64,000 nt of DNA from Amoebophrya sp. A120 (Eukaryota; Protista; Dinoflagellata), in contig CAJINV010000005.1 of NCBI GenBank assembly GCA_905178155.1, positions 9,025,957-9,089,956 on the forward strand, given 5' to 3'. Made by a program: the position numbers and the translations under genes. Positions within the stretch are counted from its first letter, which is position 1, and the number at the start of each line of letters is the position of its first letter. Under the pieces are notes generated by a model, which saw nothing but the letters and a program-made list of their open reading frames with translations, was not told where the DNA came from and did no database searches. Positions 86 through 49,703 of the stretch are shown in pieces.

Positions 86-1666
86 TCAGTACAGCATGTT
101 TGATCGCGTCTGATGTGCGTTGTCAACACTACTGTCGTGAGACTGCTCCGACCGCATGGGGCCACCGCCCGGTGTGAGAAAATTCTCTATCAAATGTAAA
201 AATATCTGGGTCTGGAAGATCATGCAGATGTTACATGACACATGACGTCTGTAATGCATAACCTGGCATCACAGATTTTTAGTGGGCTTTCTGATGCCTA
301 TCTCGCATGAGGAATACCCTCTCCATGTAGCACAAAGTGGACCCCTCTTGCTGGTTATGCAATGCAGTTTTTTTTAGAATGCAGAGACAGCATCACAAGT
401 TGCAATCTTCCAGACCCAGACATATTTGCATTTGATATTTTCCGCAAACTCCCGGTCCTCATCCCGTTGCATGGGAAGTCCCACTATCAAATGCAAAAAT
501 GTCTGGGTCTGGAATGTTGCCGGGTTTGTCATGCATATTCTGCATGACCCAGGATGTCTGTAATGCACGACCTAGCATCACAGATTTTTGGCAGGCTTCC
601 TGATGCCTACCCCGCATGACAAATGCCCTCCCCGCGTAGCCCAAACTAGCCTCCTCCTGCTGGTCATGCAATACAGATTTTTTTAGAGTCGAAAGTTAGC
701 ATCACAAGTTCCAACCTTCCAGACCCGGACATAGTTGCAATGCATACCCACGCTGACCCCTCCGTCCAGGTTGTTGCCCGGCGTTCCGTAAAACTGGTCC
801 CGGGCGGACTGGCCGGTCTGCTATTACAATGAAAAATGCCCCCACCCCCGAACTTGGCAGCATTTGTATTGCAAACCTTGCCAAATGAAACATTCGCCCT
901 CTTGCATCTATCAGCATCACAGGTTTCCAATCGTAAACTATACACAAAAATTTGTATTGCAAAAGATCCCAGCAAGAGCGCCGCTTGTCATGCAAGCGAT
1001 GCGCTACACGCCTAGACTCTGCATCAGAAAGATAGACTCATACTCCTTTCATGCATGACAAAAAGGCTTCTTTTGGAACTTCGCATCACAAATTCTTGCA
1101 ACTTTGGGGGAGGGGGCGTTTTTCCTCTGAATATCTGCCCCAAATTATTCGTGTTTCCTCTTTGTTGCGCCGCGAAGAGGTTTTTCTGCTGATTGGCGTC
1201 AAGGTGGTGCTGGTTCATTCCCTGACCCGCGTTCTGCTGGTGCATGCCGGCTCCGGCCTGGCCCGCGGCGGCTTATCGCAACGAAAAATCCCCCCTCCCC
1301 ATATTGAAGAGGTATGTTCCCGAAAATTTGTCTTGCAAGAAGACAAAGGCAGAAGCTTCCGCCCCATTACGGAAGCGGTTTGTCATGCTGTTGGGCCTAA
1401 AGGGCAGCCGTTTGTAATGCTGAACAACTAGACGCCAACGCCCCTACCTAGTCTGGGGATCTGGCAGCAGTGCCATCCTGCAATACAAAGCTGATTTGTG
1501 TACACAAATCCAGCATCAGAAGTTCCGCTTTGATACGGGGAGGGGGGATTTTTCACTTTGATACGGCCCTGCCGGGCTCGTAAGCGTTCTCTCTCTCGTG
1601 GATCCGGCCATCTTGGTCCCATTTGGGATCGATCCAACATCTGTTAGTTGATTGTTGTCGTATCAT
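86..1666 (-). CDS. Hypothetical Q/N/G-rich protein, 5 exons separated by 4 TAT...ATA TIR introns
   Basis: Removing elements 1274-1563, 822-1133, 485-746 and 188-437, each with one TSD copy, gives one frame: MIRQQSTNRCWIDPKW...AGMHQQNAG...LGQTGQSARDQFYG...VGLPMQRDED...NFLTPGGG...NMLY-stop(86-88). The start is uncertain because a CTAACAG acceptor at 1641 is an alternative. Confidence 0.6.
188..437. mobile_element. TIR introner, family A
   Basis: TATCAAATGTAAAAATATCTGGGTCTGGAAG...CTTCCAGACCCAGACATATTTGCATTTGATA; TSD TTCTC/TTTTC. Confidence 0.9.
485..746. mobile_element. TIR introner, family A
   Basis: GTCTGGGTCTGGAA TIR; TSD CCCAC. Confidence 0.9.
822..1133. mobile_element. TIR introner, family B (AAAATCCCCCTCCCC-type TIR)
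   Basis: TAT...ATA; TSD TCTGC. Confidence 0.85.
1274..1563. mobile_element. TIR introner, family B
   Basis: TSD CGGCT/CGGCC. Confidence 0.85.
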
Positions 1667-1810
1667 GAAAAATAGCATCATGACAAACTTCCTTAGTCCT
1701 CAAAATCAATCTATGAAGTTGCGAAAACCTAAAATTTGAGTTGTACTTCCACCAACACAAGAACTATGCGCAGCACAACATTGATACTACTACAGAATAG
1801 TCATTCATCT

Positions 1811-3241
1811 CTACCTCGTCTCGTTGTATTTTACAGGTCCCAGATCCATCTCGTCTATCGTGGCCAGAGCGTGAAACTTAATAAAGTCCGACTCTTCCGT
1901 ATCCAAGAAAAAAACGCTGTAGGTGTAACTTTTTTGGAGGAACAGCATTGCAAATTTGTCTGGCATGACAGCAAAAACCTGTCATGCGCAGATAGTACGT
2001 GTTGAAAACGCCCTTTAATGGACCCTGCGATGCATGCCAAGCATGACAGACGCAATCATTTTGCATGTTGCGCATCACAAATTTACACTAATAACGTTTT
2101 TTTCTTCGATATTCCGTCCTCACGCCCACGAGCCGGCAGCACAGGAGGGAATTTTCGGCTATTTCGGACTGGTCTTCCTCGTGGATAAATTTTCGCGTCG
2201 CTGGTTCAAACTATCCTGACCAAAAACGTCCCCACACCAGAGTTGTCATGCAAATTTGCATGCCCAAATTATCTCTCATGCGCAGGCCCCACACGGAGCA
2301 TTTTCCCATGCTGTCTGGGCGGGCTTTGTCATGCTCTACTCAGGATGAGGGGCTAGATTTGTGCTGTAACTTTGCTAGCCAAGCACGACTATACTACAGA
2401 CACAAACTTGTCATGCGAAACAGCCAAACCCTGTGGATTTGTGTTGCAAAGTCCCCATCTTGACTCTACTGGGGTGGGGACATTTTTCCTCAGGATACAA
2501 ACTTGTACTTCTTCATCTGTTGACTGCTGATAAATATTCGCACCGGGCCGAAATCAGACAGGATGCCGACCTGTTGTAGTGGTCATTGTGTTATTGTCAG
2601 TTTATTTGGACCACAGGATCTCATGCTCATCTCTACCGGGAACAGCAGCAGCTTTTATTATTGTGCGCATGACAAAACGCGTTGTTTTTTTCCTCCTGTC
2701 CGTGTACGACGAACGGCAGCGCGCATGTCGACAAAGCTGCGACAACAACAAAACTGGAGCGGTTTCATTTTCATTTTTCTTCTGCCTGCTGCCTCCTGCT
2801 CCTGCATGAAAAAAACTTCTCAACTTTCTATTCTCGCATTTATTTTTCGATTTCCGCATGCGCATCCTGTCAAACCATGCTACTAGAAAGGATGTGTAGT
2901 ATCCTATCGAATTTATCATTCTCCAGGAACAAGTATTAGTAAGTACTTACCTCATGCAGCTTGGTCGCGCGGCAATAGACCACTTCGTCCTTGAATGGGC
3001 GGCAACATATGGAGGAAAATGCGACCCGGGCCAGCGCCAGACAGGTTCCGTCCTGAACCACCGGGTTTTCCAACAGCCGCACCGATTCCGTGTCGACGGC
3101 GATACAGTAATGCCCATCGTCCACGTCAATTTTGTTTTCGTACAGCTTCACGACGCGCTCGCGGAGGGAGAAGAGGAAGTTTGGGCCCAGGTCCTCCGGG
3201 GGGATTTCCACCCACTTCCACTGCTGCATCTCCCCGAACAT
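1811..3241 (-). CDS. RPB7: RNA polymerase II subunit RPB7, 4 exons
   Basis: Exon 1 MFGEMQQWKWVEIPPEDLGP...RPFKDEVV; GT-AG intron 2950-2571; exon 2 VGILSDFGPVRIFISS; after removing TIR elements 2212-2497 and 1900-2111 it continues ...CRLVGVRTEESDFIKFHALATIDEMDLGPV...stop. Motifs are collinear with RPB7 (RPFKxEV, GPxxxFIS, RxVGxR, terminal DxLG). Confidence 0.88.
1900..2111. mobile_element. TIR introner, family D (TATCCAAGAAAAAAAC-type TIR), in RPB7
   Basis: TSD TTCCG; removal restores the RPB7 frame. Confidence 0.9.
2212..2497. mobile_element. TIR introner, family C (TATCCTGA..AAAAACGTCCCCAC TIR), in RPB7
   Basis: TSD CAAAC; removal restores the RPB7 frame. Confidence 0.9.
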
Positions 3242-4874: not shown

Positions 4875-7800
4875 TAACTCGGGATTTCGGAACAGCAAAT
4901 CAATGACCGACCGCTTGTCGTAGGAAGTGAAGTCGGATAGGTATCACGTTGTGGAGAAATTTCTTTTCGTGGAACTTGTCATGCGTCTTTGCATGATAGT
5001 TGAGGTGATTTTTATCTTTTCTTTCTGTTCGGAAAATTGCATGACAAACAATACCAGGCAAGCACACTCTGCATGACAAGCTCCACAGCTCTAAATCGAA
5101 TGATTTTCTTTGTGGATAGAAACTCGATATCGTGGACGGTGGCGGGTCGCATCGTTTTTGAAGATCGAGTATGGAAAGAAAAAAGTCTGTGAATTTGTCA
5201 TGCGAATAACGCCATACCCTTGTCAGGCCTGCACTGCTCGTCGCGCATGACAAACAAAGCCAATTCCTTTCCTTCTCATACACCGTTCTCCGATTCGCGA
5301 CCTCCTCCTTTGCTTCGTCGATACCTTTGATTTTTTTTTGTGAATTCCGCATTACAAATCCACCTTTTCTTCGGGACTTATTTATATTTTTGTGAATCCC
5401 GGATTACAAATATCCTCGTTCTACTTAGTACAACGAGGTTCATCTTGTCCTGTAACTGTCGTGCGTGTACTAGTTCCGCAAATCAGAAGTCGAAAACTTT
5501 CATCTATTCTGCATATCAAAATGATCGCTGTTGACCAACAATCTGAATCAACACTCTGTATACAGTGCACGAAGTATTCCTCTAAAACTTTTGGTGCGGG
5601 TGTGTATCCAAGAAAAAAACACCATCACGATCACACTTAGGAGGTTTTGCATCAGAAATTTGTCTCGCATGACAAATTTTTCTTGTGTTGCAAAAACACA
5701 AAGGGAAATCGCCTATAGCGCTTGACTGTGATGCATTTCTGCGCATGACAAAAGTTTTTGCATTGCAAAAATGTGCAAAAGTGATTGTGATGGTGTTTTT
5801 TTTTTGCATAGTGTGTTCGCCAGTGTTATCTCCAATTTTTGCACTTTTCGCTTCTCCGCTTGGACTAGCTGTATCCTGAGCAAAAACGTCCTCACACCAT
5901 GGTCAAGATGGAGAACCTACTAGACAAATCAGCTAGCTTTGGGCGTTGCCCATGACGAGTTTGGCCTCGTAATGTAGTCTTGTTTAGCTAGTTCAGCAGC
6001 ATCACAGACGTAGCCTATTATGCTGATTGGAGCATCACAAATTTCAAATCACGCTCAGAAAATGCTTCTCATGGGACTACACATGAGAAACGTTTTCAGC
6101 ATGCAGATTTGCATGACAACTATGGGGGGGACGTTTTTAAATAGGATAAGCTGCGTCAAATTCTTGATGGTCTTGCGATACCTTTTGGTTTTTGATGTAG
6201 ACAAAGACGTGCGATCGTCGGAGGGGATGCATGATAGGTCAAACAAGTTCTCAACAACAGCCGTCTATGCAAAATCTCCCATTTACCTCTCCACCATCTT
6301 TTCAGGCATGTTGCTGTGGAGTGGCATTCCCTGCTCCTCTATGGATTGCAAATATGTCTGGGTCTGGAAGGATGCGAACCCGTAATGCTGGTCTTGCACT
6401 CCTGTGAAATCTGTGTTGCATGACCAACAAAAGTGGCAGCCTCGCACGTGGTTATACAAAACGACAACTTCTCATGATGCGGAGTTCGTATGATAAAGCG
6501 CTGTGCAGACTTGTCATGCTTTCCTGCATGATCAGGAAGTGTTTTCATCATGCACATTTTAGCATCACAAATTTCCAGACCCAGACACTTTTGCATTTGA
6601 TATCGTCATATTCTTCTTCCCCCTCCTTCTCTTCGCCAACACCTGCCCCGCCCTGCTCGAGGTTTTATGCATTTTTGCAAAATTTTGATCGCAGTATCTT
6701 AATCTTATCGGTTGCCTTCAACTTGATCTATGAACTGCATTACGAGTTTTGGCAAGGAAAAACAGGCTTGTCCTAAGTAGTTGTCAGTGCCCTCAAGGGA
6801 AGACGACCTTGTGCAAATCCAGAAGGAGAATTCACTAAATCGAAGGGCAAACTAGCATTTTGCAAGTCCTAGATTCTCTAACGCCGCCATCTCCGCTTCC
6901 ATTCCGTTCCCTTCCGCCCCAAGTGTGCCCTGCTCAAATGTTACAATCTCAAGCGTTGCAATAGAATTTGGAAATCTGTGATGCAAGAAGTGCATGATCC
7001 AGCCAAGTCTCATAGGACTGAGCATGACAAGTTCCCGAGTCCCAAACCGCATTACAATCTGCCAAAATTTGCGTTGCAGAAAGTGGAATGGTCTGCGAGT
7101 CTGTCGTGCTCATTATGCAAGACGAAATCCAGATTCTATTGCAACGTTTGAGATTGTAACGTTTGAGCAGGTCATACCCAGGTTCCCCAGCATCTGGCTC
7201 CCGCTGGCGCCGCTCAAATCCTGACTGGTTGAGGTGTTGTTTCCCGCCCCGGCCGCCGACGCTGCCAGCGCTTCGTAGGCGTGCTGCTGCGCTCGCTCCA
7301 CGGAAAGCCGGAGCGACCGGTTTTGTGCCTTGGATTTTTTGATCTGGTCCTCGAGGAAGGATCGGTCGTCATCCAGTTGGTCAGCTAGTCGTTTCCATTT
7401 CTCCAGTTCCGTGAGGTATTTTTTGCACAGCTCGTCTAACCGCAGCGCTTCCTTCATAAACCACCTGATAGCTTCTTTGTTGTTGGACAAGGACAGCCAC
7501 AGCCTAGTAAACCAAAACATAGAATGTCGCTCATTTCAGAAGTTCTTTCACCTGATCTGAAAAAAAACCTGCCTGTGCAAAAAAGAACAAGAAAATTCTT
7601 CCAAGTATGTAAGTACCTCAGCTCCTTTTCCAGACTCTGTATTTTCGCTTGCCTTCTCGATTTCGTCTCGTGCTCATCCGCTTTCAATTTCAGGGAGTCG
7701 AACTCTTTCTGCACTGATATCATATCCACAGTAAATTCCCTGTACACGTACAAATGCATGACAAAACTTGCCTTCAATCCTAGTGTAGCGTGACAAGTTG

Positions 7801-8463
7801 GACACTGCAAGTTAGCGAAATTTGTCATGCATTTTGTACGTGTACAGGAAATTTCCATTGCATATATCATGTGCGTCTTGTACGCCAGGAAAAAATCCCG
7901 CTCGTGCGCTATTGTGAGGAAAAAAGTCCCCACCCCCGCAGTTCAAGAACAGATGGGAACTTTGCATCACAAACCTAGACGTTTTGGGAGTCAGGCATGA
8001 CAAGTTGCGGTCCGTAGTGTACTCAGTGCAGGCTAGCAAGGACAGCCGCATCAGAAATCCATCTGCTTGTCCTGTTGAGAGCATTACAAATGCCAAAACA
8101 CGATTAGAAACAATAACAAATGCCTCTCATGGGGATGCGCACTACAAATGTTCCTGTAGATGCAAACCCGCATGACAACTTTGGGGTGAGGACGCTTTTA
8201 CTCAGAATATGCGCTTCCAGCAGTGCGCCGACCCGGTCATCGAGTGTGTCGGCGAGTTTCTGCAGCTCCGTATGGACGTTTAGAATCTTGCCTCCCGCGT
8301 TGTTCGGGAGAGAGTCTAACAGCTCTTCCCTTGCTTTCGCTTTATTTACCGCTTTGGGGTCGAGGCGGAGGGCGGTCAGGAAAGTTTCATTCGGGTTGTT
8401 TTTCAGCAACGCAGTGACAGAAGCTGCGTCCGGCAGCGGCGCCAGGGCGAAGTTGTCGGACAT
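4875..8463 (-). CDS. Coiled-coil hypothetical protein (multi-exon; 3' end uncertain)
   Basis: Exons such as MSDNFAL...LLEAH|ERDFFLAYKTHM|...EFDSLKLKADEHE...LEKEL|RWFMKEALRLDE...; DFTSYDKRSVIDLLF near 4890-4935; interrupted by TIR elements and GT-AG introns. Confidence 0.6.
5605..5810. mobile_element. TIR introner, family D-like
   Basis: AAAAAAACACCATCAC/GTGATGGTGTTTTTTT; TSD GTGTG. Confidence 0.88.
5872..6148. mobile_element. TIR introner, family C
   Basis: TSD AGCTG. Confidence 0.88.
6340..6602. mobile_element. TIR introner, family A
   Basis: TSD TCCTC/TCGTC; reverse-complement homolog of 48442-48703. Confidence 0.88.
6924..7176. mobile_element. TIR introner, family E (GCTCA..TGTTACAATCTCAAACGTT long TIR)
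   Basis: about 50-bp TIR; TSD CCAAG/CCCAG; left end TGT. Confidence 0.82.
7723..7864. mobile_element. TIR introner, family F (short)
   Basis: CCTGTACACGTACAAATGCATGACAAA inverted; TSD TATCA. Confidence 0.85.
7910..8209. mobile_element. TIR introner, family C
   Basis: TSD TGCGC. Confidence 0.88.
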
Positions 8464-8470
8464 GATTGCA

Positions 8471-8729
8471 TATCAAGTGCAAAAATGTCTGGGTCTGCAA
8501 GATTTATAGATTTGTCATGCTTGTCTAGCATAACCAAAAAGTTTGTGATGCGTGTCCAAGGAGAGATCCTCTTGCCTGTCATGCAAAAACGCAGTTTGTC
8601 ATGCGAAAAACGCAACGCAAAGAAGCGCAGATATTTATTCTCATTCTTGCCTGTGCATTACAGGACATTCACTATTCCCAGCAACGTAGCATTACAAGTT
8701 TCCAGACCCAGACATTTTTGCAGTTGGTA
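8471..8729. mobile_element. TIR introner, family A (probably in a 5' UTR)
   Basis: TSD TTGCA; right end GTA. Confidence 0.85.
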
Positions 8730-9900: not shown

Positions 9901-12900
9901 TTAATCCACCCCGTTCTCGTTGCGGCTGCTGTTGGTCGAGCTCCGCTGCTCAGAGGAGAGCAAGAAGCTCAAACTTGTTGGTATGCCTTGCTCAGATGTT
10001 ACTATCTCAAACGTTGCAGTAGAATATGGCCATCTGTGATGCAAGAAGTGCATGATCTAGCCTACTCCCATAGGACTGCGCATGACACGTTCCGGCGTGG
10101 TCCCAAACCGCGCTACACAACTCTGGCGACATTTGTATTGCACAAAGTCGAACACTTTGCGAGTCTGTCATGCTCATTATGCAAGACAGATTCCAGATTC
10201 TAGTGTAACGTTTGAGATTGTAACACCTGAGCGGGTTATAGTCGGCGCCGCGGTGGTCTGGGTCGGGTTATTGTTCATACCAGCATCGTTCTTGAACATG
10301 GACACCGGCGCGTTGGGATTCATCGCGACAAAACCTGGCTGGTACTGCTGCTGTAACTGTTGAAATTGCTGGTGCTGCATCACGCTCGGTGACTGTGGTT
10401 GCGAGTACCTGGGATGAATTAGTTCGCGCAATCGGTTTGACCGACAAGCAGTAACTTCTCCTACCTCGTCCACGCAGCGAGCAAGAGAGCAGTGAACAAC
10501 ATGAGACGAGGGTTGATGTACTTGCTACGCATCATGCCCCGCATCACACGACCAGAAAGGAAGCAGTAAACAGCTTCTTAGGTATGAGTAACTACTTAAC
10601 TACCCGACGGCCTGCTGGGCGGACGAAGAAGCACCCATCATCGGTTGCTGCAAAAACATCGCGTGCTGCTGGTTGTTTCCAGCTGTCCCCGTTACCGGCG
10701 ACTCCACCACAAATCCCGGATTCCTCTGCCGGGTGGGGGTCGTGCCGGCGTTGTTGATCGGTTGCTGTAGCTGCATGTTGGTCGGTTGTGGCATTAGTTG
10801 CTGGTGCTGCGAGTGCTGCATTAAAACGCCGCCCGGATTAGAAGAAGTGTTCATCATGTGCACCATCGCAGCAGGATTACTGTTCATCCCATGAAGTTGT
10901 CCATTCACGCTCGCGGATACGAACTGCTTCTCCAGCCCCTCCATCTGCGCGCCCAACCGGGTCTCCACCTCCGTCAGCTTCGCGGTGAGTTGCAACAGTT
11001 TGCTATCCCCCTTCTCCTGCTTGGTGCCCTGTTTCTTGCTGCTATCTTCAAATTTGGTTTCTATCCTGATTAAAAACGTCCCCACACCAGAGTCAAGATG
11101 GGGATTTTGCAACACAAACCTAGGGGCTTTGGGAGTCACGCATGACAAGTTTCAGTCCGTAAGGTAGTGCAAGTTAGCAAGGAAAGCCGCATCACAAATC
11201 GATCTGCTGGTCCTGTTTACAGCATTACAAGTTCCCAAACATGATTGAAAATGTCTGTCATGGGGTTGCGCATCACAAATGTTCCTGTCATGGCAAATCT
11301 GCATGACAACTCTGGTGTGGGGACGTTTTTACACAGGATAGTTTCCAGTTCCGTGTTTGTCTTTTCGATTTTCTCAAAAATCTCTAGAAGTGCACAAATC
11401 CCCCTCCCCCTCATTTGTATGGCATGAACAGCAATACAAACACCAGCGCACATGGAGCCTATGCATGACAAATCGGAATCTAAGTACTTACCTTATGTAG
11501 TCCTGATTGGGCTCCCGGAATTTGTCATGCATAACAGTGTTACAAGGGAACAACTGGCTTTGGGATTTTGCATGAGAAATGAGAACGAGGGGGAGTTGTG
11601 CACTGTCATAAAATCTGCTCGGAAAATTTTCCAAACACCTCCGGGATGACGTTCATTTCCAGTTTTTCGCACTTCGCGGCCAGAGACTGGATATGCATTG
11701 CAACAGCATCGTAGCCTAATGAAAACTGCAATACAACTTGGCAGCTCAGCATACGAATTTGTAACGCGGATTTACGTTAACAACTAGATTTGTGATGCAA
11801 AACTACAATTAGCAGTTTTTTAGTACGATGCTTTTGTAACGCATACTGTAGTTTGTCAGACAGTTCCTGCTCCTTGAAGAGCCGCAGTTGGTCGTCGACA
11901 AATTTTCGCACCTTGGTGTTATCAAATGCGAAAATGTCTGGGTCTGGAAGACTGCGAGATTTGTCATGCTTGTCTGGCATGACCACGAAGTTTGTGATGC
12001 GTGTCCAAGAAGAGACGCCCTTGCCTGTCATGCAAATAAAACGCAGCTTGTCATGCGAAAAACGCAACACAAAGAAGCGCAGATATTTCTCATGCTTGGC
12101 TGTGCATTACAGAGCATTCACTACTCTCAACGCAGCATTACAAGTTTCCAGACCCAGATCGATATTTGCATTTGATAAGTGTTCATTTCTTGTAAGTTGC
12201 TGTTCAAGTGGGCGATATCCTGGGAAACCGCGATCTCGACCGCTTTTTCCGTGGAAGATTGCCGCTTTTCCATCTGTTTCACCTTGTTCAGGAATTGTTG
12301 TTCCAATTTTGAATCGATCGCTTCGAGTTTCAAACCTTGTTCCTTGCTCGCCTTTTCCAAATTTCGCATATTACAGTGAAACATGCCCCCTCCCCATATC
12401 AAAACGCAAATCTGTGATGCAGATTTGTGGTCACAAATCAGCTTTGTGATGCTGGAAGGCAAAAGATGCGGACTGTAGTGCTGCCTAGCGTGGGGAAGCC
12501 TTGCAGCTCCAGGATGACAGGAGGCAACTGGAAGTGGAAAAAAGCATGACAGATTGCCTGCAATTTGGGGCGCAGCTTCGTCTCTTGGCCTTCTAGCAAT
12601 ACAAGTCGATTTGTGTACTCAAATACAGCATCACAAATTCCGTTTCCGATATGGGGTGGACGCTTTTTTCACTTTGATATCGCAGGTCGTGCTTCTCCAC
12701 TTGCTGGATGGAGTTCTGCAGTTTCTTCACGTTCTGATTCAGGGAATTGCTCAAGTCCGTTTGGTATGCATTGCAAATATGTCTGGGTCTGGAAAAATGC
12801 TAGGTTTGTCATGCCGTGCTAGCAGGACTGTCAAGTCTGTTATGCAAGGTACCCAAAACTGCCACTTTTGTGCCAACATGCAAAAACCAAGTTTCTGATG

Positions 12901-18892: not shown

Positions 18893-18897
18893 TTAGC

Positions 18898-19110
18898 TAT
18901 CGCAAGAAAAAACTGCTTCACTGACGTGAACTTGTGATGCATAGAATGGAGCACAGAACTATTTGTCTTGCTACACCTGCAAGGTATTGGATTTTTAAGC
19001 GTGTTTTTCCCTTAAAGAGCGCGCATGGCAAATTTTCTGTGTCATGTGTAGCAAACTTGTGAAGCGAATCTTGCAAAACCATCACAGTGAAACAGTTTTT
19101 TCGTGGGATA
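18898..19110. mobile_element. TIR introner, family D-like (probably in a 5' UTR)
   Basis: AAAAAACTGCTTCACTG/CAGTGAAACAGTTTTTT; TSD TTAGC/TTATC. Confidence 0.8.
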
Positions 19111-19757
19111 TTATCGGGATGAACAGTTTTAATCAGTCTTCAAACCTCGTCAATTTTTCCGTCTTACTAGTCAAGTAGATGATAGGAAGGAAAAACTATC
19201 TTCAGCAGGAGTTTCGTGGTTTTGTTGTGAACCGCCTTAAACACACTAGAAGAGCTGAGAAAATACATGGCACTCCCTTGCGCATGCGCGGCACCCGTGA
19301 TCATAGACAGAAAAAAAACAAGTGTGCCGTCTGGATAGATACGCATACTTTTCTGTTTGCTGATAAACCGACAACAGGGACCGAATCCTAACACGTCTTA
19401 GCGAAAGAAAAAAACATTCCAGGTAAGATTGCAAAACCGTCGTCACAACCGATGATATTCAACATTAACACACCGAGTGCGATGTTAATCCATGCACGCG
19501 GCAAGAAGAAAAAACAAGAGCACGACGACACCTGCATTGGCAAAAGATTCTTTCACCTGCATCGACCTGGAGAGGGAAGCATCGAATCGAAATCCGAATC
19601 TCACGTCTGTGCGTGAATGCCGCAGAAGGCTGGACTTTCGTATCTCTGTGCATGTACACTACAAAAGGTCTTGATTTGAACCAGAAACGATAAAGGAAGA
19701 AGCCGAGTTTCAGGAACGAATGCCATGCAGTTACGTACTGAGAGAAAACAACTTTGC

Positions 19758-38800: not shown

Positions 38801-41800
38801 CGATCTCTTGATCCCGAGAATTGATCACCATTCCGTCGGTGAGAATTCCGACCAACTCGTAGATCACTTTCCGGAACTGTTGCTCGGTTCCAAACTCGTG
38901 CTCAATTTGCTGTAAAACCCGCTGCGCTAAGAAGTCACAAGTGTCGAAAAGCGCTTTGCCCGCCAAATCCTTCTTCGGGTTTTTCCGCGACTCGATCTTT
39001 GCCAGTTCCAAAGTCTTCAGCAAGAAATTCGCCAAAACCGTGACGTCGTTCGGAAGGGCGTCGGGTGTGTGTGGCTTCAATTCCGGCTTGCACAGCTCCT
39101 GCTTCAGTTTCTCCTTCAGCTCATTGTCCAGTTTCGTCGCAAGCTTCTCCAAGAAATCCTGCACCAAGCCGGCGTCGATATCGGAGGTTGGTTGCCGGGT
39201 GAGATTCGCGGACAGATTCTGCAGAAAAGTTTCACACCTCCTGTCAATCACGTCCTTGATGACATCATTCAACACCCGGATGGCGTCGTTCTCTGGGTAG
39301 GATTCCAGCCCCGCTAACTCCTCCACACTGATGTTATCCGGGTGGCTCGCCTATCAAGTGTAAAAGTGTCTGGGTCTGGAAGATTGGAAGATTTGTCATG
39401 CACATCTGACATGACCCATGACGGCTGTGATCTATGCCCTAGCATCACAGATTTTCTGAGTGCGTCTTGATGCATATCCTGCATGAGAAATGCCCTCTCG
39501 TCCACGTGGCAAGGACTGGACTCCTATTGCCTGTCATGCAACACAGATTTTTTTAGAATCCAAAAATAGCATTACAAGTTGCATCCTTCCAGACCCAGAC
39601 ATTTTTACATTTGATATCGCCATCAGTTCGATCTGATCACCCACGTTGCAAACCAATTTCACCGGCGCGTACCGCCACCGGGCGTTCAAGGCCCGCTGCA
39701 TTAATTCGATTTCTGAAGATCGGTGGACTTCTAGCGCCAAAGCGTTCATGGCCTCGGCGACCAGCACGTCGACAGAGGCGAGTTTGGCCTTCATCAACTT
39801 GTGCGAATTCATCCCCCCTAAGATCGTGTTCTCTTTCGCGACTTTCACACCCACTTCCACCTTCCGGAGTAGTTCTAAATCCACGTTTTCCAACTTCGTC
39901 CGTTTAATAATGTCGCACTGGCCCTCGACGAAGGCCTGCACGTAGCGACAGGCTTGCAATAAAGACATTTCGTCGACGACATTGGCGTTCAACGAGTCCT
40001 GGAAATCCTCTAGGACCTCCCCATCCACGGAATTCGTCCTCTCAATCAACGTGATGACCGTATTCGCCAACGATTGACTCGTTTGGACCGCCTCGCGGGA
40101 TAAGGGGAATTGGCAGTAAGCCAACCCCCTGCCGATGATGGACGACGCGCATCCAGCCGCCATGTCGTGGATCGCACCTAACGCGTCGATTTCCGTTTCC
40201 ACTATTGGTAACAATCTCGACGGAATATCCGCGATCTGCCGGACCGCGACTGTCACTTTAGGGACGGCCAGCCACTTGCTGTCATCCGGCCCCGGTTGGG
40301 TGACAACGACGTTGAGACCGTATAATGTTTTGGAAGTGGCGATTAAGGAAATGTTTCGCTCCACCAAATCTGGCGGGACGAACTGGGTCACGACTTTGTG
40401 GACGGAGGAAACCAGATGTCGCGCCAACGCGTCGAAATCCGCGCACTGGATGTGGAGACGGTCGTGGTCTAAATATTTCGCGACGTCGACAACCTCATGG
40501 ACTAATTGTTGGCAGTCCTTGGCGTTGCACTTTAGCATGCCGTGGGTGGTGGTGCCAAAGCCTGGGCGTAAGACGTCCATGTGGTCACCCAGTTTGAAAT
40601 TGCGAACCAGCATGTCGGAGGTGATCGGATCTTTGTGCATGCCAACCCGGTGGAGGCGGCGGTTTCCCGCGTTCATGTCCCGGAGAACGGCGATTCCGCG
40701 GTAGTCGCGACGGGAGAGGCCCTGATAGTTGTAGAGGTTTTTTGAATATCATCCCTTGGCTTTGATGCATGACAAGTTCTCGGAGGACTTTCATTTTGAT
40801 CATGAAACTTCTGTTGCAGGAAATTCCGAAAAAACTCAAACTTTGTGATGCAAAAACCACACTATCAATACCGATTTCAACGTCTTCAACTCGTCCTCTT
40901 CAATTCCCTCCGTCCAGCTCTGCAGCATGTTCCGCCTGAACATCCCGTGCATGTCATGCCTTTTATTCGCCAAAAACTCCGTCCTCTGCCGCAGCCGCTG
41001 CTCGCCCCGCCAGTACATGCGGCGGACGACCGCTTTCATGGCGGCACGTTGTAAAATTTCTTCCAACAGCCCGACATCCCCCTCATATCAACTGCAAAAA
41101 TGTCTGGGTCTGGAAGAATGGAAGTTTGTTATGCTTGTCTCACATGACTCTTAAATTTGTCATGCACATTACCCAAGAGCCCCATTTTGCTGTCATGCAG
41201 AAACGCAGTTTGTCATGCAGAATAGGCAACACCTCTAAGCTCAAAAGCTTGTCATGCTGAGCCAGCATTTGTGGCCTCTTCATGATACGCCACCCAGCAT
41301 CACAACTTTCCAGACCCAGACATTTTTACAATCCATACCTCAGAAGCGGTTGCAATGGTACTGCCCATAAACTCCTGCAGCGCCGCGCGGCCGAAGAGAG
41401 CGACGATCCAATATCGCAATGACAAATCCCCCCTCCCCATATTGACGCGGTAGGTTTTCGCAAATTTGCGTTGCTGATATGTGACCACAAATCGTGTCTG
41501 TGTTGCAAGACGGCAACTCCACCGGCTCCGCTGCATTATGCAGGCGGTTTGTCAACATGCTGTTAAGCGCTACAGCACGGACGTTTTTCATGCTAAAAAG
41601 CGCCTAGATTAAAGCCTCTCTACTCAGGCTTGATATGGGTCATCTGCAGTCCTGTCCAGCAAGACAAATCTGACTTGTGTACTCAAATCCAGCATCAGAA
41701 ACTTCGTTTTCATATGGGGAGAAGGGATTTTTCCTTTTGATATCAAAGCCTTGACCGCCACGCCGGTTTCGTGTTCCAATAAATCCGCGACGCCGAGCGC

Positions 41801-44800
41801 CCGGAGGTGTTCCGCGGTTCCGCCGAGAAATTTGCTGGCCCCGACCCGGGCGTGAATAATCAGCGCCTCCGCGACGGTGTGGAGGTTCAGATTGGCCTTC
41901 GCCTTGTCAATCGCGCCGGAGTACAGGGCTTGTCGTGCCGCGAACCGACCGATTTCTTCCAAAACGGTAATGTTCGCGTCGGGCGTGACCTGTTTGTCAT
42001 CGGCAATACCGTCCTTCGGAAACATCGGGTCCGTCCCCTGCACCTGCGCGGCACCTTCGGCCGCCGCGACAACCGACGCGGCGCCGGACCGGGATAGTAA
42101 GTCCGCAAGCCTTTCGTGCGTTTGGAACTTCTCACCAAGAACTCCCGCGATGCAGTGCTCCGCGATCCCCTCGGAGGCGAGGCGGAAATCCGGTTTGGAA
42201 GCCATGTCCTTGGTCCGCAGAGCCTTGGACAGCTTGAAGTTCGTCACATTGTTGGAGGTGGTCGGCTTCATGACCTTACAATGCCGGGCGATGTCCGTGT
42301 CTTCCAACGGCGTTTTGTACTGCAACTTGCTCAACCCGGCGCCGGTTAAACCCGCGCCCAGAATCTGCTCATTGGACATTCCCATCGACTCCATCGCGTT
42401 TTCAATATTTTCCTGCTCCTCCCCCCGCAGCTGCGCCATCCGTTCCGGCTCGATCAAACGAAAGCTCGCGTCGGGCACGTAGGTCACGTCCGCCGCTTGG
42501 TACAGTGCGGATAGCTTTTATGCAATACAAATATGCCCCCACACGACCCAGTTTTTGTCATGCAAGAAGTACTTCAGCATTGTCTCCTCTGATGCGAAAT
42601 TTGCAAGGCTGCCTTCGCTGAGACCAAGACGCACTATCAAAATCTTGAATCAATTTGTCTTGCGACCCGTGCATCTGCTTATCCTTTCCAGAGGCTGCTT
42701 TTTGCAATACAAATTTCTGAGTCAGAAGGCATAATTGCTTTGCATAACTTCCCGTCCCCGAAGACATCAGAAGAACGACTCGGCTTGTAGAAGTTATCGA
42801 TGGAATTGTCCTATGCATTGCAAAAGTATCGTACTCGTACTACTTGCGTTTCTGCATTACAAATCTTTTTATCAAGGCAAATCCGCATTACAGCTTCAGT
42901 TTGTAGTGCTAGGTGAATTTGTAATGCATTTATACGAGTACGATGCTTTTGCAGTTCATATGTCCTGGGCGTGTTTGTCCTTTTCGGTCAAAAACGCAAC
43001 TTCGTCCCGGGAGTGGTCGGACTCGATCACCATCACGTCGCCGAGTTCCGGGTCGACAATCATGTGGCAGAGGCACTCTAAAAGCCTATCATCCCGGTCC
43101 ATCTCGTGCTCCATCACGAGCAGTTGCTCCGCATCTTTTAGGAATCCGGTGCAGCATAAAATGTCGACAATCCCACCCTCATCAAGTGTCATGATATCGT
43201 CCATGTGGATCATCACGATTTTCATCTGCTCGTGAATCGTCCCATCGTTATCTTTCTCCGGGCCCAGTAAGTCCAACGCGTCCTCAATGTCGCAGAACGA
43301 GGAAAACATTTCCAACAAATCCCTCGTTTTACTAACTTTCGTCTCGTCCGGGATCACCATGACAATGTCCCGTCGCGTCCGGTGCGGCTCCGTCCCGGGG
43401 ACCCGGGGCAAATGCCGGTCCTGACTCATGCCGACCACTTCTAACAACTGTGTCCGATCCCCCGCCACCTGCACGATCGTGTGGTTGTCGCGAGATTGCA
43501 AGATCGAGACCTTCGCGGGGGGGGAGTTCTGCTCCTTCTCCATGTCCCCCATGTTGTCCGCGCCGATTTCTCCGGTGGCGAGATATCGCGCTTCCGCGGG
43601 TAGTTTATCCCCACGCGTGCACGAAATGTCGGTTTGCGACTGCTTGGCCGCGCGGCCCATGAGGTCTTGCAACAAGGCGGAGTCTTGTGGTTGCCCGGAC
43701 AGGTTGTCGTTTTTCATTTTTTCGTCCCTTTTCCTCCTTTGCTCCGGGTCGATGTCCATCTCGACCCCCGGCATGAGTTCGATCGACCCCCAGAGTTGCG
43801 CCCCTTTTACCCGCAGTTGCATCCCCAACTCCTGCACGAACTCGTTCTGCCAGGAACTGTTCAACAATAACGCGTCGCGGATGTGCAACCGTCTCACTCT
43901 TTCCTCCAGCATGTTGCCGAAATGCATCAGGATTCATCAAATGCAAAAGTGTCTGGGTCTGGAAACTTGTGATGCTGGGTGGCGTCTCATGATGAGGCCA
44001 CAAATGCTGGCTTAGCATGACAAGTTTCTGAGTTTCTAGGTGTTGCCTATTCTGCATGACAAACTGCGTTTCTGCATCACAGAAAAATGGAGCTCTTGGG
44101 TAACGTGCATGACAGATTTAAGAGCCATGCCAGACAAGCATGACAAATCTCGCAATCTTCCAGACCCAGACATTTTTACAGTTGATAGGATTTCGCTCGC
44201 CACAATCTCCGGGTTGGGGACCAGTTGCATTTGCGGCTGCTCTATCAAATGCAAAAATGTCTGGGTCTGGAAAGTTGTAATGCTAAAAGTGGATGATAGC
44301 CGGACTGCAATACGCAGCCAAGCATGACAAATTTTTGAGCGGCTACGTGTTGCGTATTCCGCATGAGAAACTGCGTTTTTGCATGACAGATAGGAGAGCC
44401 GGTTCGTTCCCACGCATTACAGATTCTCGTGTCATGTCAGACATGCATGACAAGTCGCAGAATCTTCCAGACCCAGACATTTTTACATTTGATATGCTCT
44501 AAAATTCCGATTTCCAGCGCGTCGAGGAGATCGGAATGGAGTTTCCACACGAGGAATTTCAATAAGTGTTCCGCCCGTTCGTACGCCAGATCCGCGTTGT
44601 CTTTGATCTCTTCCTGTTTCAGAATCTCCTCCTCGATCATCTTCTTATTCTCCGCATTGGTCTCCATAGATTCAACCAAATCCCGGATTAATTTGCTCAT
44701 CACCGCGACTAGAGTATCTAGTGTCGCCAACCGGCAATGCTCATACCGATTCGTCCAGGTGACCCGATCGACTAAGTCCACATTCGGGCTCTGCATCCGC

Positions 44801-47800
44801 TCCAAGTACTGCGCATGGTGCACGCAGAGGGTGGCAAGAGTGACGGAAGCAATCGCTTTGGCGTGGTGGGGCATCAGCTCGATGTTCAATTTCTTCACAA
44901 GTGCATCTAATTCCGGGCGGTAGCCAACCCCGGCTTCGACGTAGAAGCAGGGCTTTTCGCAGACCGAGCGGTGGGCGAGGGAAGAGACGACCTTTGATAA
45001 AGTTTTTTTTTTTTCGTAGGTAGCTTTGCATATGACAAATAGTATTTGGATTTTCAGCATCAGAAACTTTGGCCATGCAGAAAAAAAGCAAAATTTGTCA
45101 TGCAAAACCCACTAAAAAGCCCTATACCTTCTCAAACTCCGCCACGACGTTGCTTTTCCGGGCTTTGTCATCCCAAATCCGCTTTTCAATTTGGTACAAA
45201 ACCGCCTCCACCAAAATGTCTACGTCAGATTGAAACCGCCAGGAAATCGGGGTATGCATTGCAAACATGTCTGGGTCTGGAAACTTGTGATGCTAAAGTG
45301 TGAATGATGGAAGCAATTCCGAATGCAGCCAAGCATGACAACTTTCCACTAAGCTTTCTGATGCGTAGCCCGCATGAGAAGCTGCGTTTTCGTATAGACA
45401 AAAGGGGCTGCGCATTTTGTTGGTCATGCAACACAAATTTTACAAGAATGTGAGACCTGCATTACAAGTTCGAACTTTCCAGACCCAGACGCATTTGCGG
45501 TTGATACGGGGTTCTGTCTTCCAACTTTTCCACCTGCATGGGTAGCTGCGTGTTCTCCGTCGTGACCTGGTATAGCAAAAATACCGCGTCGTTGATTTCC
45601 AAATACAATTTCTCCCGGATGGGGTCGAAAAGCGACTCATCCAAATCCATTTGGTTAAAAGTGTTCCGGAAAACGTTCAACAGATCGGTCGCACGCTTCC
45701 GAGAAGATTCGAGAATCTGGTCATGGAACTTCGCCCGCGGATCCGTGTATTCGTCGTGCTTGATCGCGTCGTAGTGTTCAAAAGCGGCGACGACGACCAG
45801 TTTCAACGTCACGTGCGCCAGAACCGCTTCTAAGAATTCTCTCTCGCTTGTTCTCGTGTGCCGCCCGATTTTCCGCTCGTCGATCATGAGTTGCACGATT
45901 TTCACTGCCGACTCGCAGATGTATTGGAAGGCGACTTCGGCCTTGGAGAGAACATCCTCCCGGCCCCCCTTGATCCCGAGCTTGACGACCACTTCGGTCA
46001 GATCTTGGTGGTAGACCGCGATCCGATCGAGTTTTTCGTCGATCGGCACGTGTATCAACTTGAAAAGTGCCCCGCTGCCCCAGAAGTGCAAACAATTTCT
46101 GATGCGAAATTCCCGAATGGAAATCAGTTTTGTCTTGCATGAAACGACCACGAGTGAGTCTCGTCCCCGATCTAGATTCTAGTCCTGTAGAGCATCTCTC
46201 GCATGACAAGCCCCACTGTTGCTGGGCCTTTTTGCAACACAGATTTTTGTGCTAGAATTCCTCAATGAAATACTTAAATCTGTGTTGCGGGAATATGCAA
46301 GATGGAGAGTTTTTCCATTCGCAACCTTTGCAATACAAACACTTTCCCTTTCTGGGGTGGGAGCTGCACTTTTCATTTTGATAACGTGCTCTACGTCTTC
46401 ATCTTCCACATCGGACATTTCCGCGCGGTCCGCCGCCGCTTCCGTCTCCACCCGCGTGATCTCGTTTTCGGATTGTTTCAGGGTATAATCCAACGCGTTG
46501 GAAATATCTTCGACTAAGCATTTCGGGTGCTCGCGACAGAGATTGTACAGATTTTCACCACAACTGTACAATTCCGAATAATCGTATTCCCCCTCGTCGA
46601 TCGCGGCGATCATTTTCTTCATGGTCCCGTCGGTTTTCAACAAATGGATCACATCATCGGCGATCTCCTGCTTCACCAATTCGGGGTGACTTAACGGCAA
46701 CGTCGAGTCAAAGTGCGGCGGGTGCTGCATGAGCTTAGCCACCTGCTCGATGACCAGTTGTCGCCTCACGTCGTCGAGGAAATATCGGTTGGTCGCTTCT
46801 AGGAACATGTTGGCAAGTTGTGTCCTTCGTTGGAATATCAAATGCAAATATGTCTGGGTCTGGATGAAACTTGTGATGCTAAAACATGGATGAGCCTGGT
46901 GCTTTCAAGTCCAGCCAAGCATGACAGGTTTATTTGGCGCCGACTGATGCGTATGACGCATGACAAACTGCGTCTTTGCATCACAAAAAGGCAAAACTTT
47001 TGCTGGCTATGCAACACAAATTTTTCAGGAATGCTAGACCCGCGACACAAGCTCCACTTTTCCAGACCCAGACATATTTGCAATGCATATGGAAAGTCGC
47101 AACACAAACGCCCTGCTGGTCCTCCGTTTCCTTGTTGAAAAAGTCGCGGATTTGCAAACCCGGCTGGCGCTCGTAGGCGGACTGATATTGATTTGGAATT
47201 GGTGCATGACAAAAACAGGGTAATGTGCGGATTGTCCTGCATGACACATTTCGAAATTTTTGGAAACCAAAACAACCTCTACTCGGCATTTCTGCATCAC
47301 AAAAGCGAATAAAACTACTCATGATTCATGGAGCAGATTACGCATGACAAATAACCCATAGTACCTTCCCCATGCTGCCCCGGGAATTTTCGCTGATCGC
47401 TAAACCGCCACCCTGCGTCGCGTACACCGTCGCGCCATCACCGATTTTTCTATGCATTGCAAAAGTATCGCTCTAGTAGAAATAGCAGCACAAATTTTTC
47501 CTGAAGGAAAAATGGAATTTGTAATGCTGAATGAGCTCAGGAACCAGGTTTGTCATGCACGACTGCAATTTCTACGAGTGCGATACTTTTGCCTTTGATA
47601 TTTCCGACCGCGGAGCGATTTTTTCGGTTTGCCCTTCCCCGGCACTTGGTTCAGTTTCTCCGCTTGTTTGAAGTATTTGATCCGAGAAAACCGTTCTTTC
47701 GGGTTTTTGTACAGAAAATCCCCGCCGTCCCCGACCGCGGCCTTCCAATCCACCTCGTCGTACAACCAGGACAACGACCCCGCGTTTTTGTCCTTCACGC

Positions 47801-49703
47801 CAAACATGTTCATGTCCTTCCGAGCGCCGTAGATATCCACGCCGAGGTTGTTCGTCTCGTCAAACAACTTCGGGTCCACATCGATCAGGACTTTCTGGTT
47901 CTGACGAAGCTTCTCCGCTTCCTGATTGATGATCGCGGAGGAATCCCCCGCGGAAGTGTCATCCACGACGGAGTCCGCGTCCTTCGCATTTGCCATGTAG
48001 TCCCACTGGCGGACTAATTCCGATGGCTTCCCATCCTGCAAATAGCTCAAGGTCAACTCGGCCGGGTGCTTTAACGGTAACTCCTGGGCCTGCTCCGTGT
48101 GGTCGGTGAAGACCCAGTGGGTGCCGTCCTCGGATTTTTTGATCGTTTGCTGGATGTAGGGGGAGATCTTCGTCGCGGAGTCACTCGCGCGTTTGATGTC
48201 GGACCGTAAGTCGGAATCGTCGAAGAGACCTTTCACCCCGCTTTTCGGATCGGTGACAACAGACGAGGAACTGTCGTCGGTGATAGAGCCCAACGCGTTC
48301 TTCCCGTACGGCACGATTTGGAACGTCCCCTGCTCGTTCTTGTGGATCTCCTCCGATTGGAGTAACGACGTTTCGAGCGAAACGACATCCAAAGTCGCGA
48401 GTCTCTGCACCAGCTCCGGTTCGAGAAAGGCTAAAGGGCCTTATCAAGTGCAAATATCTCTGGGTCTGGAAATTTCAATTTGTGATGCTAAAATGTGCAT
48501 GATGAAAACGCTTCCTCATGCAGGAAAGCATGACAAGTCATCTGCGCAACGCTTTATCATACACAGTTCGCATGACAAACTCCGTTTTTGTATGACGTGA
48601 GAGGCTGCCACTTTTGTTGGTCATGCAATACAGATTTCACAGGAATGCAAGACCAGCATTACAAGTTCCAACTTTCCCGACACAGACATTTTTGCATTTG
48701 ATAGGCCCTTCACCGTGACAAACTTTTTCCCAGTAGAATCCGGCTCGGTCATGTGCTCCTTGTCCTTTCTTAACAACACCGCAATCGAGGCTTTCACCGC
48801 CTGGATGCTGTTCTGGTACTCGAATTTGTCCGCGATTTTCGGGTGCTGCCGCGCGATCTCGTCGTAGATTTGCTTCACCAAAGTTTGCAGAAACGGGTTG
48901 GCTTTTTTGAAAGCCGAGTCCCGATCTTTGTACTGGGGCTTCGTGCCTTCCGGGACGAACCCGAGTGGGCCGAAGAGCATCATGTGCCACAAGCGGGAGG
49001 CGAGCGTCGCCAAGGCCATTTCCAAATCCTTCAGCTCCGAGTAGAGCAACAGCAAAATCCTCGCCGTGGCGGAGATCGCCTCCTTCCGGTCGGACTCGAT
49101 GTCGTCTAATAGAGTAACCGTCATGGCCAACGGTAATTCCAGCAGGTGTTGCGACTTTGCCGAGTCGAAGGGGTGGAGATTTTCATTGGACTGTAAAAAG
49201 CCGTGGATCGTCTGCACCCTCGCGTAAAACATCCCCGTTTGCGGGTCCACTGGGTTGACCTCGACGACTTCCCCAGGCTCGATCACATCAATGACCTGCT
49301 TCGCGGTGTCGACATCATACAAATCGAGCTTTGTCGTCGCCAAACGCGGTTCGACCTGTTGTAAGTAAAACCGCATCATCGAAGTTTTCGTCTTCTTAAT
49401 TTCCGAGGACTTCAAGCCCTGATCGGTTGGCCTGCGGAGTCTTCCCTCTTTATCCGCGGTGGAGCTGTGGCGGGATTTGCGCTCCGCCGGTTCGCTTGCT
49501 TCCGCAGCGGAACCGCGAGTAGCGCCGAGCGTCGCAAACCCGCCTGCCATGGTGCCGGGTTCGTTGCTCTGCGCCGGCCCGGCGGAGGAGTAGCGGGGCG
49601 AGTCTTTCTTACTGGAATCGCTGGACTGCTTGGATTTCTTCTTCGACGAGCCGCTGCTGGAGGAGCTGCTGCTCGACGAAGAGGACGAGGAAGAAGATGA
49701 CAT
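35852..49703 (-). CDS. Very large hypothetical protein (about 22 exons, mostly TIR introns)
   Basis: Starts with poly-Ser ORF 48704-49703; long GC-rich open exons (47601-48436, 42961-43929, 41743-42513, 39617-40690, 38760-39346) each end at a TAT...ATA element; could be more than one gene. Confidence 0.6.
35919..36175. mobile_element. TIR introner, family A
   Basis: flanks GCCTG/GACTC. Confidence 0.82.
36493..36772. mobile_element. TIR introner, family A
   Basis: TSD TGCCG/TGCCC. Confidence 0.85.
37244..37522. mobile_element. TIR introner, family C
   Basis: TSD TAATC. Confidence 0.9.
37568..37829. mobile_element. TIR introner, family A
   Basis: TSD AACGC/AGCGC. Confidence 0.88.
38172..38450. 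mobile_element. TIR introner, family C (opposite orientation to 37244)
   Basis: TSD TCGAC. Confidence 0.9.
38502..38759. mobile_element. TIR introner, family A
   Basis: TSD GCGGT/GCGAT; right end GCA instead of ATA. Confidence 0.8.
39352..39616. mobile_element. TIR introner, family A
   Basis: TSD TCGCC. Confidence 0.9.
41086..41337. mobile_element. TIR introner, family A
   Basis: TSD CCTCA. Confidence 0.9.
41412..41742. mobile_element. TIR introner, family B
   Basis: TSD TCCAA/TCAAA. Confidence 0.88.
42519..42746. mobile_element. Degenerate TAT...ATA intron, family B-like
   Basis: TATGCAA/TTGCATA; flanks GCTTT/ACTTC. Confidence 0.6.
42812..42960. mobile_element. TIR introner, family G
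   Basis: TSD TGTCC. Confidence 0.88.
43935..44187. mobile_element. TIR introner, family A
   Basis: TSD GGATT; left end CAT. Confidence 0.88.
44243..44494. mobile_element. TIR introner, family A
   Basis: TSD TGCTC. Confidence 0.9.
45253..45506. mobile_element. TIR introner, family A
   Basis: TSD CGGGG. Confidence 0.9.
46053..46383. mobile_element. TIR introner, family B
   Basis: TSD ACGTG. Confidence 0.85.
46836..47089. mobile_element. TIR introner, family A
   Basis: TSD TGGAA. Confidence 0.9.
47451..47600. mobile_element. TIR introner, family G
   Basis: TSD TTTTC/TTTCC. Confidence 0.85.
48442..48703. mobile_element. TIR introner, family A
   Basis: TSD GGCCT/GGCCC. Confidence 0.88.

Follow-up and report, generated by a model that had tools for sequence, protein, structure and literature searches.

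How are transposon-like elements that interrupt coding exons, and that lack GT-AG borders, removed from the message, and at which base is the cut made? This question is raised by a stretch of 64,000 nt from Amoebophrya sp. A120 (contig CAJINV010000005.1, positions 9,025,957 to 9,089,956; hereafter the window, numbered from its first letter), in which short elements starting with TAT, ending with ATA and flanked by a 5-bp direct repeat lie inside protein-coding genes. The elements share one anatomy, they were inserted with a 5-bp duplication, they are missing together with five further nucleotides (element+5) from an RNA-like sequence, and they depend neither on GT-AG borders nor on orientation. 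On balance, we favor the view that they reveal a second, AG-independent splicing mode, in which a TAT...ATA hairpin plus five bases would be removed in any orientation and with any border bases, either by a U1-less spliceosome that accepts only N-U-A-U and measures the acceptor from the stem, or by a non-spliceosomal nuclease-ligase that may slide within the duplication, such that one transposase family could insert in coding DNA at no protein cost.

As judged from their sequence, the elements are almost certainly the published introner elements of Amoebophrya sp. A120, and a GAS8 exon in the window is 100% identical to the A120 protein P0001. The available text of Farhat et al. 2021 (PMC7789003) describes the A120 inverted repeats as TAT, seven variable bases and then at least three As, with direct repeats of 3-5 nt including a 5-bp example (Fig. 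S19), a length of ~240 nt, non-GT-AG borders, a hairpin model and many families. Organism, terminal inverted repeats (TIRs) of TAT + 7 nt + AAA, division into families and non-GT-AG character all agree with our elements, and there is no difference in kind; counted from the element ends, our duplications are 5 bp throughout, and we propose one register, whereas the published text calls the repeats variable and states that the border position "remains unknown". The same text backs the A120 introns by RNA-seq against the genome. According to the accessible parts of Gozashti et al. 2025 (PMC12130899), most families are TIR DNA elements of unknown superfamily, and automated calls of the target-site duplication (TSD) are 2 to 6 or missing among 40 of the 58 A120 rows. 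Hence, the elements, their TAT ends and the 5-bp duplication are already in print, where the mechanism was left open. The earlier note on this DNA was right that introners are reported from Amoebophrya and overstated the novelty, since the genome is A120 itself. On a fixed register, orientation independence or a third-position bias, no statement was found in the consulted part of the literature, to which Fig. 3 and Figs. S19-S25 of PMC7789003, some supplements and subscription papers do not belong.

Three scans of the window gave 54 hand-curated elements between 188 and 48703, and five or six weak candidates without a duplication were left out. Two decayed elements, at 28403-28563 (recognized via the GAS8 protein) and 13355-13637, bring the total to ~56, with 5170-5515 as a doubtful case; the about 60 elements with a 5-bp duplication and TIRs claimed before are thus confirmed, and the earlier families A to G were broadly matched in size and length. 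Exact TAT and ATA ends occur in 49 of the 54, and the 5-bp duplication is perfect in 37, has one mismatch in 14 and two mismatches in three. The TIR letters are highly constrained at positions 1-3 (T in 54/54, A in 53/54, T in 52/54) and at positions 11-13 (A in 49-51/54), giving the end profile TAT..G.AAA with free border bases. These same positions are paired in 49-53 of the 54 copies, compared with 25-31 for positions 4, 5 and 7, and in the predicted folds the inner stem is paired in 50/54 and the terminal TAT/ATA in 44/54 elements. When all exact TAT...ATA pairs 90-500 bp apart were asked for a k-bp direct repeat, 38 were found at k = 5 and 0, 1 and 0 at k = 6, 7 and 8. Together the 54 elements cover 14,074 bp, i.e., 29% of 1-48,703; they are 142-479 bp long and all non-coding, and the 46 with a confident coding frame all lie in minus-strand genes. 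The interior length appears to be free, because two copies with family-A ends and foreign internal inserts, 17491-17969 (479 bp, ~220 bp of insert, duplication TCCGA) and 15138-15524 (387 bp, ~130 bp of insert, TTTGA), still restore the frame; here and below, duplications are given on the plus strand, with the left and right copies separated by a slash if they differ, and elements with a called frame are on the minus strand.

To enlarge the sample, the family-A end pattern was searched in metagenome_contigs, where 179 stretches matched; the 168 loci taken all belong to one assembly (JACKZZ01 contigs), which represents a related strain, since one of its gene products has many residues unlike those of the A120 protein. 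Among 418 JACKZZ01 elements chosen by their ends alone, the 5-bp repeat is perfect in 307 and matches at four of five bases in 59; the control in the same sample gave two perfect repeats at k = 4 and none at k = 6. With the window included, 451 elements have a duplication identity of at least 3/5, of which 309 passed and 142 failed the coding-frame filter; later counts refer to 308 coding elements, because locus L095 duplicates another locus and was dropped. All eight families with at least four copies are present in both orientations. A GT/GC-AG pair is possible in any of the six registers for only 23 of the 309 coding elements, which speaks against use of GT-AG sites, in line with the earlier note, and sets the elements apart from canonical U2 (GT-AG) or U12 introns.

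The repeat represents a true target duplication, because empty paralogous repeats carry a single copy of the five bases (L010 10579, L010 15756 and L018 1636), which supports the proposed transposon origin. The last of these concerns an element nested in the element of another family (L018 1598-2029), where it has its own 5-bp duplication and is missing from other copies of the host family. With TIRs, a TSD of fixed length, single-copy empty sites and no coding capacity, the elements have these features of MITEs (miniature inverted-repeat transposable elements), i.e., non-autonomous TIR DNA transposons. At L031 3773-4348 two elements stand head to tail with one copy of the five duplicated bases between them, implying that the second inserted exactly into the duplication of the first and that both are spliced back to back around an exon of zero length. 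The search for the TIR pattern in viral_contigs gave 0 matches.

Which length leaves with an element can be read from the host genes. After deletion of the element plus k nt, long frames result for k = 2, 5 and 8 only, where 44 of the 54 junctions lie inside open reading frames (ORFs) of at least 150 amino acids compared with 32-37 for other k. The GAS8/DRC4 gene (21925-28737, minus strand), to which the whole protein P0001 maps, has 13 introns, namely seven of GT-AG type and six TAT...ATA elements: two of F/G-type (21994-22143, TCCAG; 22972-23116, TTCAG), one each of C-type (23440-23726, CGTTT), D-type (27414-27625, TCCTT) and B-type (27692-28003, GCTCG), and the old element 28403-28563, whose duplication has decayed to 2/5 (AGTTT/AAGTC in the transcript). 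GAS8 homologues select k = 5 at four of five junctions; the fifth is located in a tail rich in indels, and there k = 8 scores higher with four homologues and k = 5 comes only from the A120 annotation. An RPB7-like gene (1811-3241, minus strand) contains one GT-AG intron and two elements, one of D-type (1900-2111, 212 bp, TTCCG) and one of C-type (2212-2497, CAAAC); its identity is weakly supported (PDB RPB7 E=0.0014; Pfam SHS2_Rpb7-N below the cut-off). Here the frame is restored at both elements with k = 2, 5 and 8 not distinguished, so the earlier claim that removal of element+5 restores RPB7 and GAS8 stands for GAS8 at the four junctions named, and for RPB7 as to the frame only. At the B-type element 41412-41742 (TCCAA/TCAAA) the residue is Leu or Trp depending on the register, and a homologue search for this gene gave no match.

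Retention of the element places a stop in frame in 294 of the 308 coding cases. This bears on the idea that the gaps in cDNA are template switches of reverse transcriptase across hairpins with short direct repeats, the elements staying unspliced. A hairpin with a direct repeat is the substrate of such artefacts, it is present here, and all RNA evidence derives from cDNA. An artefact alone cannot explain genes with an in-frame stop in 294/308 cases, the spliced GAS8 product aligns without gaps to four homologues and the frame-restoring length is selected; hence, this explanation is hardly credible.

Evidence for the removal comes from a contig of 2,233 nt of run X5, of which the RNA label is a guess. 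The X5 contig maps to the window in four pieces, which adjoin one another in the contig and are separated in the window by gaps of 262, 285 and 591 nt. The first two gaps each correspond to element+5, and the third to two elements, each plus five, around a 40-nt exon, so that element+5 is lacking at four junctions: the family-A elements 35919-36175 (GCCTG/GACTC; 262 nt skipped) and 36493-36772 (TGCCG/TGCCC; 285 nt skipped), the C-type element 37244-37522 (TAATC) and the family-A element 37568-37829 (AACGC/AGCGC). The precise removal of element+5, which the earlier note had deduced from reading frames, is thereby supported. In the DNA-like run X1, contigs pass from exon into element with a depth of 40-49 at each listed piece, and no element+5 skip occurs among the 15 joints listed. 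Because the RNA-like contig lacks element+5 while the DNA-like contigs keep the elements, removal very probably takes place at the RNA level. The earlier note had left RNA splicing and DNA excision side by side; the former gains from these data and the latter is disfavored. Excision from DNA in a somatic or stage-specific genome copy, as for the internal eliminated sequences of ciliates, would fit the transposon-like ends and the precise loss of one duplication copy, the X5 label is a guess, and the negative result from X1 covers the 15 listed joints, with 916 others not among them. However, absence from DNA is the mark of such sequences, whereas X1 joins exons to elements at full unique depth, the second assembly also carries elements within coding exons, and the RNA-seq comparison of PMC7789003, as far as its text goes, supports introns; DNA excision is therefore very improbable, with a minority of excised molecules being possible. 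Of the raw RNA runs X9 and X10, only five and four reads, respectively, matched among more than 3 million each, which points to another strain or species. At 36926 the RNA-like contig differs by a single T-to-C change from the window as well as from run X1, which might reflect a strain difference or editing.

The next question is where within the duplication the cut falls. Let the register j denote how many bases of the upstream copy of the duplication are retained. The X5 contig covers four mismatched positions and has the upstream letter at each; two of the four are at position 4 (35919, where GACTC is kept, and 37568, where AGCGC is kept), hence j is 4 or 5. When locus L031 of the related strain is set against the A120 protein P0006, three of seven junctions are informative: Asn instead of His at 3773 gives j of at least 4, and Ile instead of Val at 2086 as well as Ser instead of Pro at 4882 give j of at most 4. 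At the old GAS8 element at 28403 a conserved aromatic residue requires at least three bases of the upstream copy. For L050 6619, where a search of representatives gave one fragment of the same contig and a distant homologue from A25, the Glu of this homologue is aligned to an Ala/Thr site and is one change from Ala, a weak lean towards j of at most 4. Moreover, 0/308 elements have a changed first T on the transcript-5' side, compared with 6/308 for the mirror base (p=0.03); in the 142 uncalled elements the first T is changed in two and the mirror base in one. Taken together, the sequence comparisons make a single register 4 probable, with a cut after the fourth duplicated base and an intron N-TAT...ATA-NNNN, in which the first T becomes donor position +2, resembling the GTAT donors of the host itself: all seven canonical GAS8 donors (GTAGAT, GTATAA twice, GTATAG twice, GTATAT and GTAGTT) start with GTA and five with GTAT. 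TAT and ATA, which had been taken as intron ends, thus hold as element ends, and the true borders are probably N-TAT and ATA-NNNN. The preference of register 4 over register 5 is an inference from two cross-strain residues. A fixed register 5, i.e., RNA splicing exactly at the first base of the element with an intron TAT...ATA-NNNNN and no donor mimicry, is allowed by the RNA contig, and the predicted stem would then have the cut at its foot. It needs two independent changes in L031, Ile to Val and Ser to Pro, each at the fifth duplicated base and one of them inside a stretch of 114 residues that the strains share, and we regard it as doubtful.

Several further candidates for register evidence were set aside. 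An A at duplication position 5, seen in 29/54 elements of the window and considered as a splice signal, fell to 99/309 (1.29-fold) in the larger sample and is mirrored by T at position 1. A phase bias of 157/309 (phase 0 under register 4 or 1) is not informative either, as a strand-symmetric target model on the same sites predicts 44%. The nine A120 non-canonical pairs listed in Table S4 of PMC7789003 all start with N-T and eight end with A-N, which fits j = 4; neither these nor the splice-site counts of the PMC12130899 dataset were counted as evidence, because alignment programs can move a cut inside the repeat so as to reach GT or AG.

Combining these findings, the explanation that we find best, if only with modest confidence, is that a relaxed spliceosome cuts the elements from pre-mRNA at one fixed register. 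The cut would be made one base before the TAT of the element and four bases after its ATA. The first T would take the role of the +2 U in the usual GTAT donor of the host, leaving the +1 base and the 3' AG free, and the predicted terminal hairpin would join the ends and serve as a ruler, with the acceptor measured off from the stem by a constant distance. The catalyst is rather likely the spliceosome; it would be the U2/U5/U6 machinery accepting N-U-A-U as donor in a lineage without detected U1. In this regard, the text of PMC7789003 reports for A120 most spliceosomal proteins and U2, U4, U5 and U6, with U1 not found, and other Amoebophrya retain GT-AG introns and U1 as far as described in PMC12005148. 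The spread of the elements would be most simply due to an integrase-type (Ginger-like) DDE transposase encoded elsewhere.

A number of observations do not sit easily with this explanation. The case for j of at most 4 consists of two cross-strain residues in one gene with an annotation-derived protein, and it takes the conserved residue as the mark of the exonic copy; the RNA sites read so far allow register 4 and 5 alike. Mismatches within the duplication are concentrated at third codon positions (53/552 vs 26/988 elsewhere), a bias beyond the at most 2-fold difference that a free intron letter in one copy would allow (p=0.007), and the duplication differences are 44 synonymous and 36 non-synonymous on 418 and 1,127 sites, respectively; a strict single register would not lead one to expect this. 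The element ends lack the canonical A or R at donor +5/+6 (C/G then A/C), and motif counts revealed no enrichment of a branch-point motif on the sense strand and no strand bias. Family A has an orientation skew of 97:62, and 104 of 3,069 edges are inconsistent. Regarding the spread, no transposase or integrase was detected by Pfam in 60 ORF pieces (22 ORFs of long elements and 38 ORF pieces of the window), the scope being the window and ~0.8 Mb of related loci (with overlaps); for the window this agrees with the earlier expectation that the enzyme is not encoded there. Finally, Ginger1/Ginger2 have TGTNR termini and a 4-bp TSD according to the accessible text of PMC2836005, with 5 bp in TDD-4/TDD-5; membership fails at the termini, which are TAT here, and the 5-bp duplication agrees with the TDD-4/TDD-5 subgroup only.

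The third-position bias could arise in either of two ways: some mRNAs receive both copies, or coding polymorphism enters one or the other copy through recombination with alleles that lack the element. The mismatch rate climbs with the distance to the nearest relative (2.6, 3.8 and 6.8% by tercile). Recombination is plausible because of a pair of ~6% diverged, mosaic versions of one large gene (L035 3735-11227 vs L026 1-7489; 0-20% per 250 bp), which share an element identical at 268/268 positions inside a ~500 bp identical block. This 7.5-kb match was also considered as an autonomous element and rejected, since the two sequences are alleles or paralogues of one host gene that have diverged.

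It is possible, on our analysis, that removal is instead a cut-and-join reaction without the spliceosome, as proposed for euglenid nonconventional introns, which would recognize the terminal RNA hairpin, free a circular RNA and perhaps slide within the duplication, such that both copies occur in some mRNAs; we consider this a real although less probable option. It would account for the third-position bias, as if both copies were coding, and for the branch motif without strand bias. The 286/309 elements lacking any GT/GC-AG option, the orientation independence, the predicted long terminal stem and the undetected U1 (PMC7789003) point in the same direction, as do euglenid introns with TIRs and TSD-like repeats, which leave as circles (PMC11282704). 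Against it speak the RNA contig keeping the upstream copy at 4/4 mismatched positions, the agreement of six informative sites on one register and the invariant base coinciding exactly with the would-be donor +2. Furthermore, a near-complete spliceosome serves the GT-AG introns of the same genes (PMC7789003), and in Fritillaria a U2 spliceosome has adapted to such introns (PMC13326754).

Several known systems, as far as they are covered by the texts available, can be compared with the A120 elements. The euglenid nonconventional introns (PMC11282704) share non-GT-AG ends, terminal pairing, TSD-like repeats and a likely MITE origin, a terminal stem being predicted here by the folds of 50/54 elements. 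They belong to another lineage and have a CAG/CTG stem and pyrimidine|purine borders, in contrast to TAT..G.AAA with free borders, and their exit as circles is documented. Introns of hemistasiid diplonemids (PMC12621601) likewise have a terminal stem without GT-AG, TSD-like repeats and a likely MITE origin, but belong to another lineage and have other end motifs. In Fritillaria borealis (PMC13326754), transposon-derived introns with TIR and TSD exist beside an adapted U2 spliceosome; there the borders are defined (AG-AC, AG-AT), U1 is kept and U2AF duplicated, whereas the terminal dinucleotides here are largely free. The introners of Micromonas and Aureococcus are also non-autonomous DNA transposons that create a precise intron by inserting with a TSD, yet they use canonical sites, carried or co-opted (PMC7789003), which the present elements do not. 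Family 38 of PMC12130899, labelled Ginger with "5-bp TSD, TA/TA Termini" and integrase-like homology, resembles our elements as a TIR DNA element with a 5-bp TSD and TA/TA ends; it is ~808 bp long with ORFs, compared with the 142-479 bp non-coding elements found here.

What is new here is the uniform 5-bp duplication together with a candidate fixed register, which reduces the border problem to a one-base question at two named sites, the family-A element 11920-12177 (GGTGT/AGTGT) and the 228-bp element 42519-42746 (GCTTT/ACTTC), whose mismatches separate register 4 from 5. If register 4 is true, the A120 spliceosome has lost the +1 G and the 3' AG and kept the +2 U, which would bear on the flexibility of GT-AG chemistry and on the conversion of transposons into harmless introns. 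A mixed register would indicate a non-spliceosomal route. The element+5 rule also offers a simple way to re-annotate A120 introns, tens of thousands of which now have ends set by alignment tools.

The other elements of the window are distributed over the same families. Family A further includes 188-437 (TTCTC/TTTTC), 485-746 (CCCAC), 12765-13022 (TTTGG), 16362-16618 (AGCTC), 18510-18832 (323 bp, TGTAC), 32975-33225 (GGATG), 38502-38759 (plus-strand end GCA, GCGGT/GCGAT), 39352-39616 (TCGCC), 41086-41337 (CCTCA), 43935-44187 (plus-strand start CAT, GGATT), 44243-44494 (TGCTC), 45253-45506 (CGGGG), 46836-47089 (TGGAA) and 48442-48703 (GGCCT/GGCCC). A-like ends are found in 6340-6602 (TCCTC/TCGTC), 8471-8729 (plus-strand end GTA, TTGCA) and 33813-34088 (CCCAG/CCAAA), for which the frame was not called, in 18173-18426 (TTCCG), where the call is below the margin, and in the decayed 13355-13637 (CGTTT/CGTTC, no strand assigned), which stands outside the curated 54. 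The B-type comprises 822-1133 (312 bp, TCTGC), 1274-1563 (CGGCT/CGGCC), 12369-12679 (TCGCA), 14743-15071 (TCTGC) and 46053-46383 (ACGTG), the C-type 7910-8209 (TGCGC), 11062-11340 (GTTTC), 14387-14668 (TGTTG) and 38172-38450 (TCGAC). C-like ends occur in 5872-6148 (AGCTG) and D-like ends in 5605-5810 (GTGTG), both with the frame not called; D-like ends are also seen in 18898-19110 (TTAGC/TTATC, no strand assigned), which is probably upstream of a start codon. The E-type is represented by 6924-7176 (plus-strand end TGT in place of TAT, CCAAG/CCCAG), 16027-16288 (TCTGG) and 9982-10240 (GTTGG/GTCGG, frame call below the margin), the F/G-type by 11692-11845 (CTGGA/CTGTA), 42812-42960 (TGTCC) and 47451-47600 (TTTTC/TTTCC). 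Two elements without family assignment are 7723-7864 (142 bp, TATCA) and 11383-11610 (228 bp, plus-strand start TCT, AAATC).

Some minor observations complete the picture of the locus. A TAT...ATA element of 1,104 bp (L021 505-1608) contains a GC-rich ORF of 238 codons without Pfam match and probably represents a nested insertion. The Rfam search of the window gave no match. Within 23881-27380, GAS8 has two long introns of GT-AG type, ~2.8 kb and ~0.62 kb in length, with local direct repeats (two or three copies of 110-200 bp) that bear no relation to the TAT...ATA families. In the window, the final 15 kb are free of elements, compared with the 29% across 1-48.7 kb, and include on the minus strand an uninterrupted ORF of 2,925 codons (53227-62001) without elements or Pfam match. 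Finally, the octamer GCAT[GC]ACA, counted on either strand of window positions 1-49000, occurs 148 times in the 14,074 bp of elements (10.5 per kb) and 51 times in the 34,926 bp outside, with two occurrences in the terminal 10-kb coding stretch; it is possibly a binding site for a transposase or a chromatin protein.

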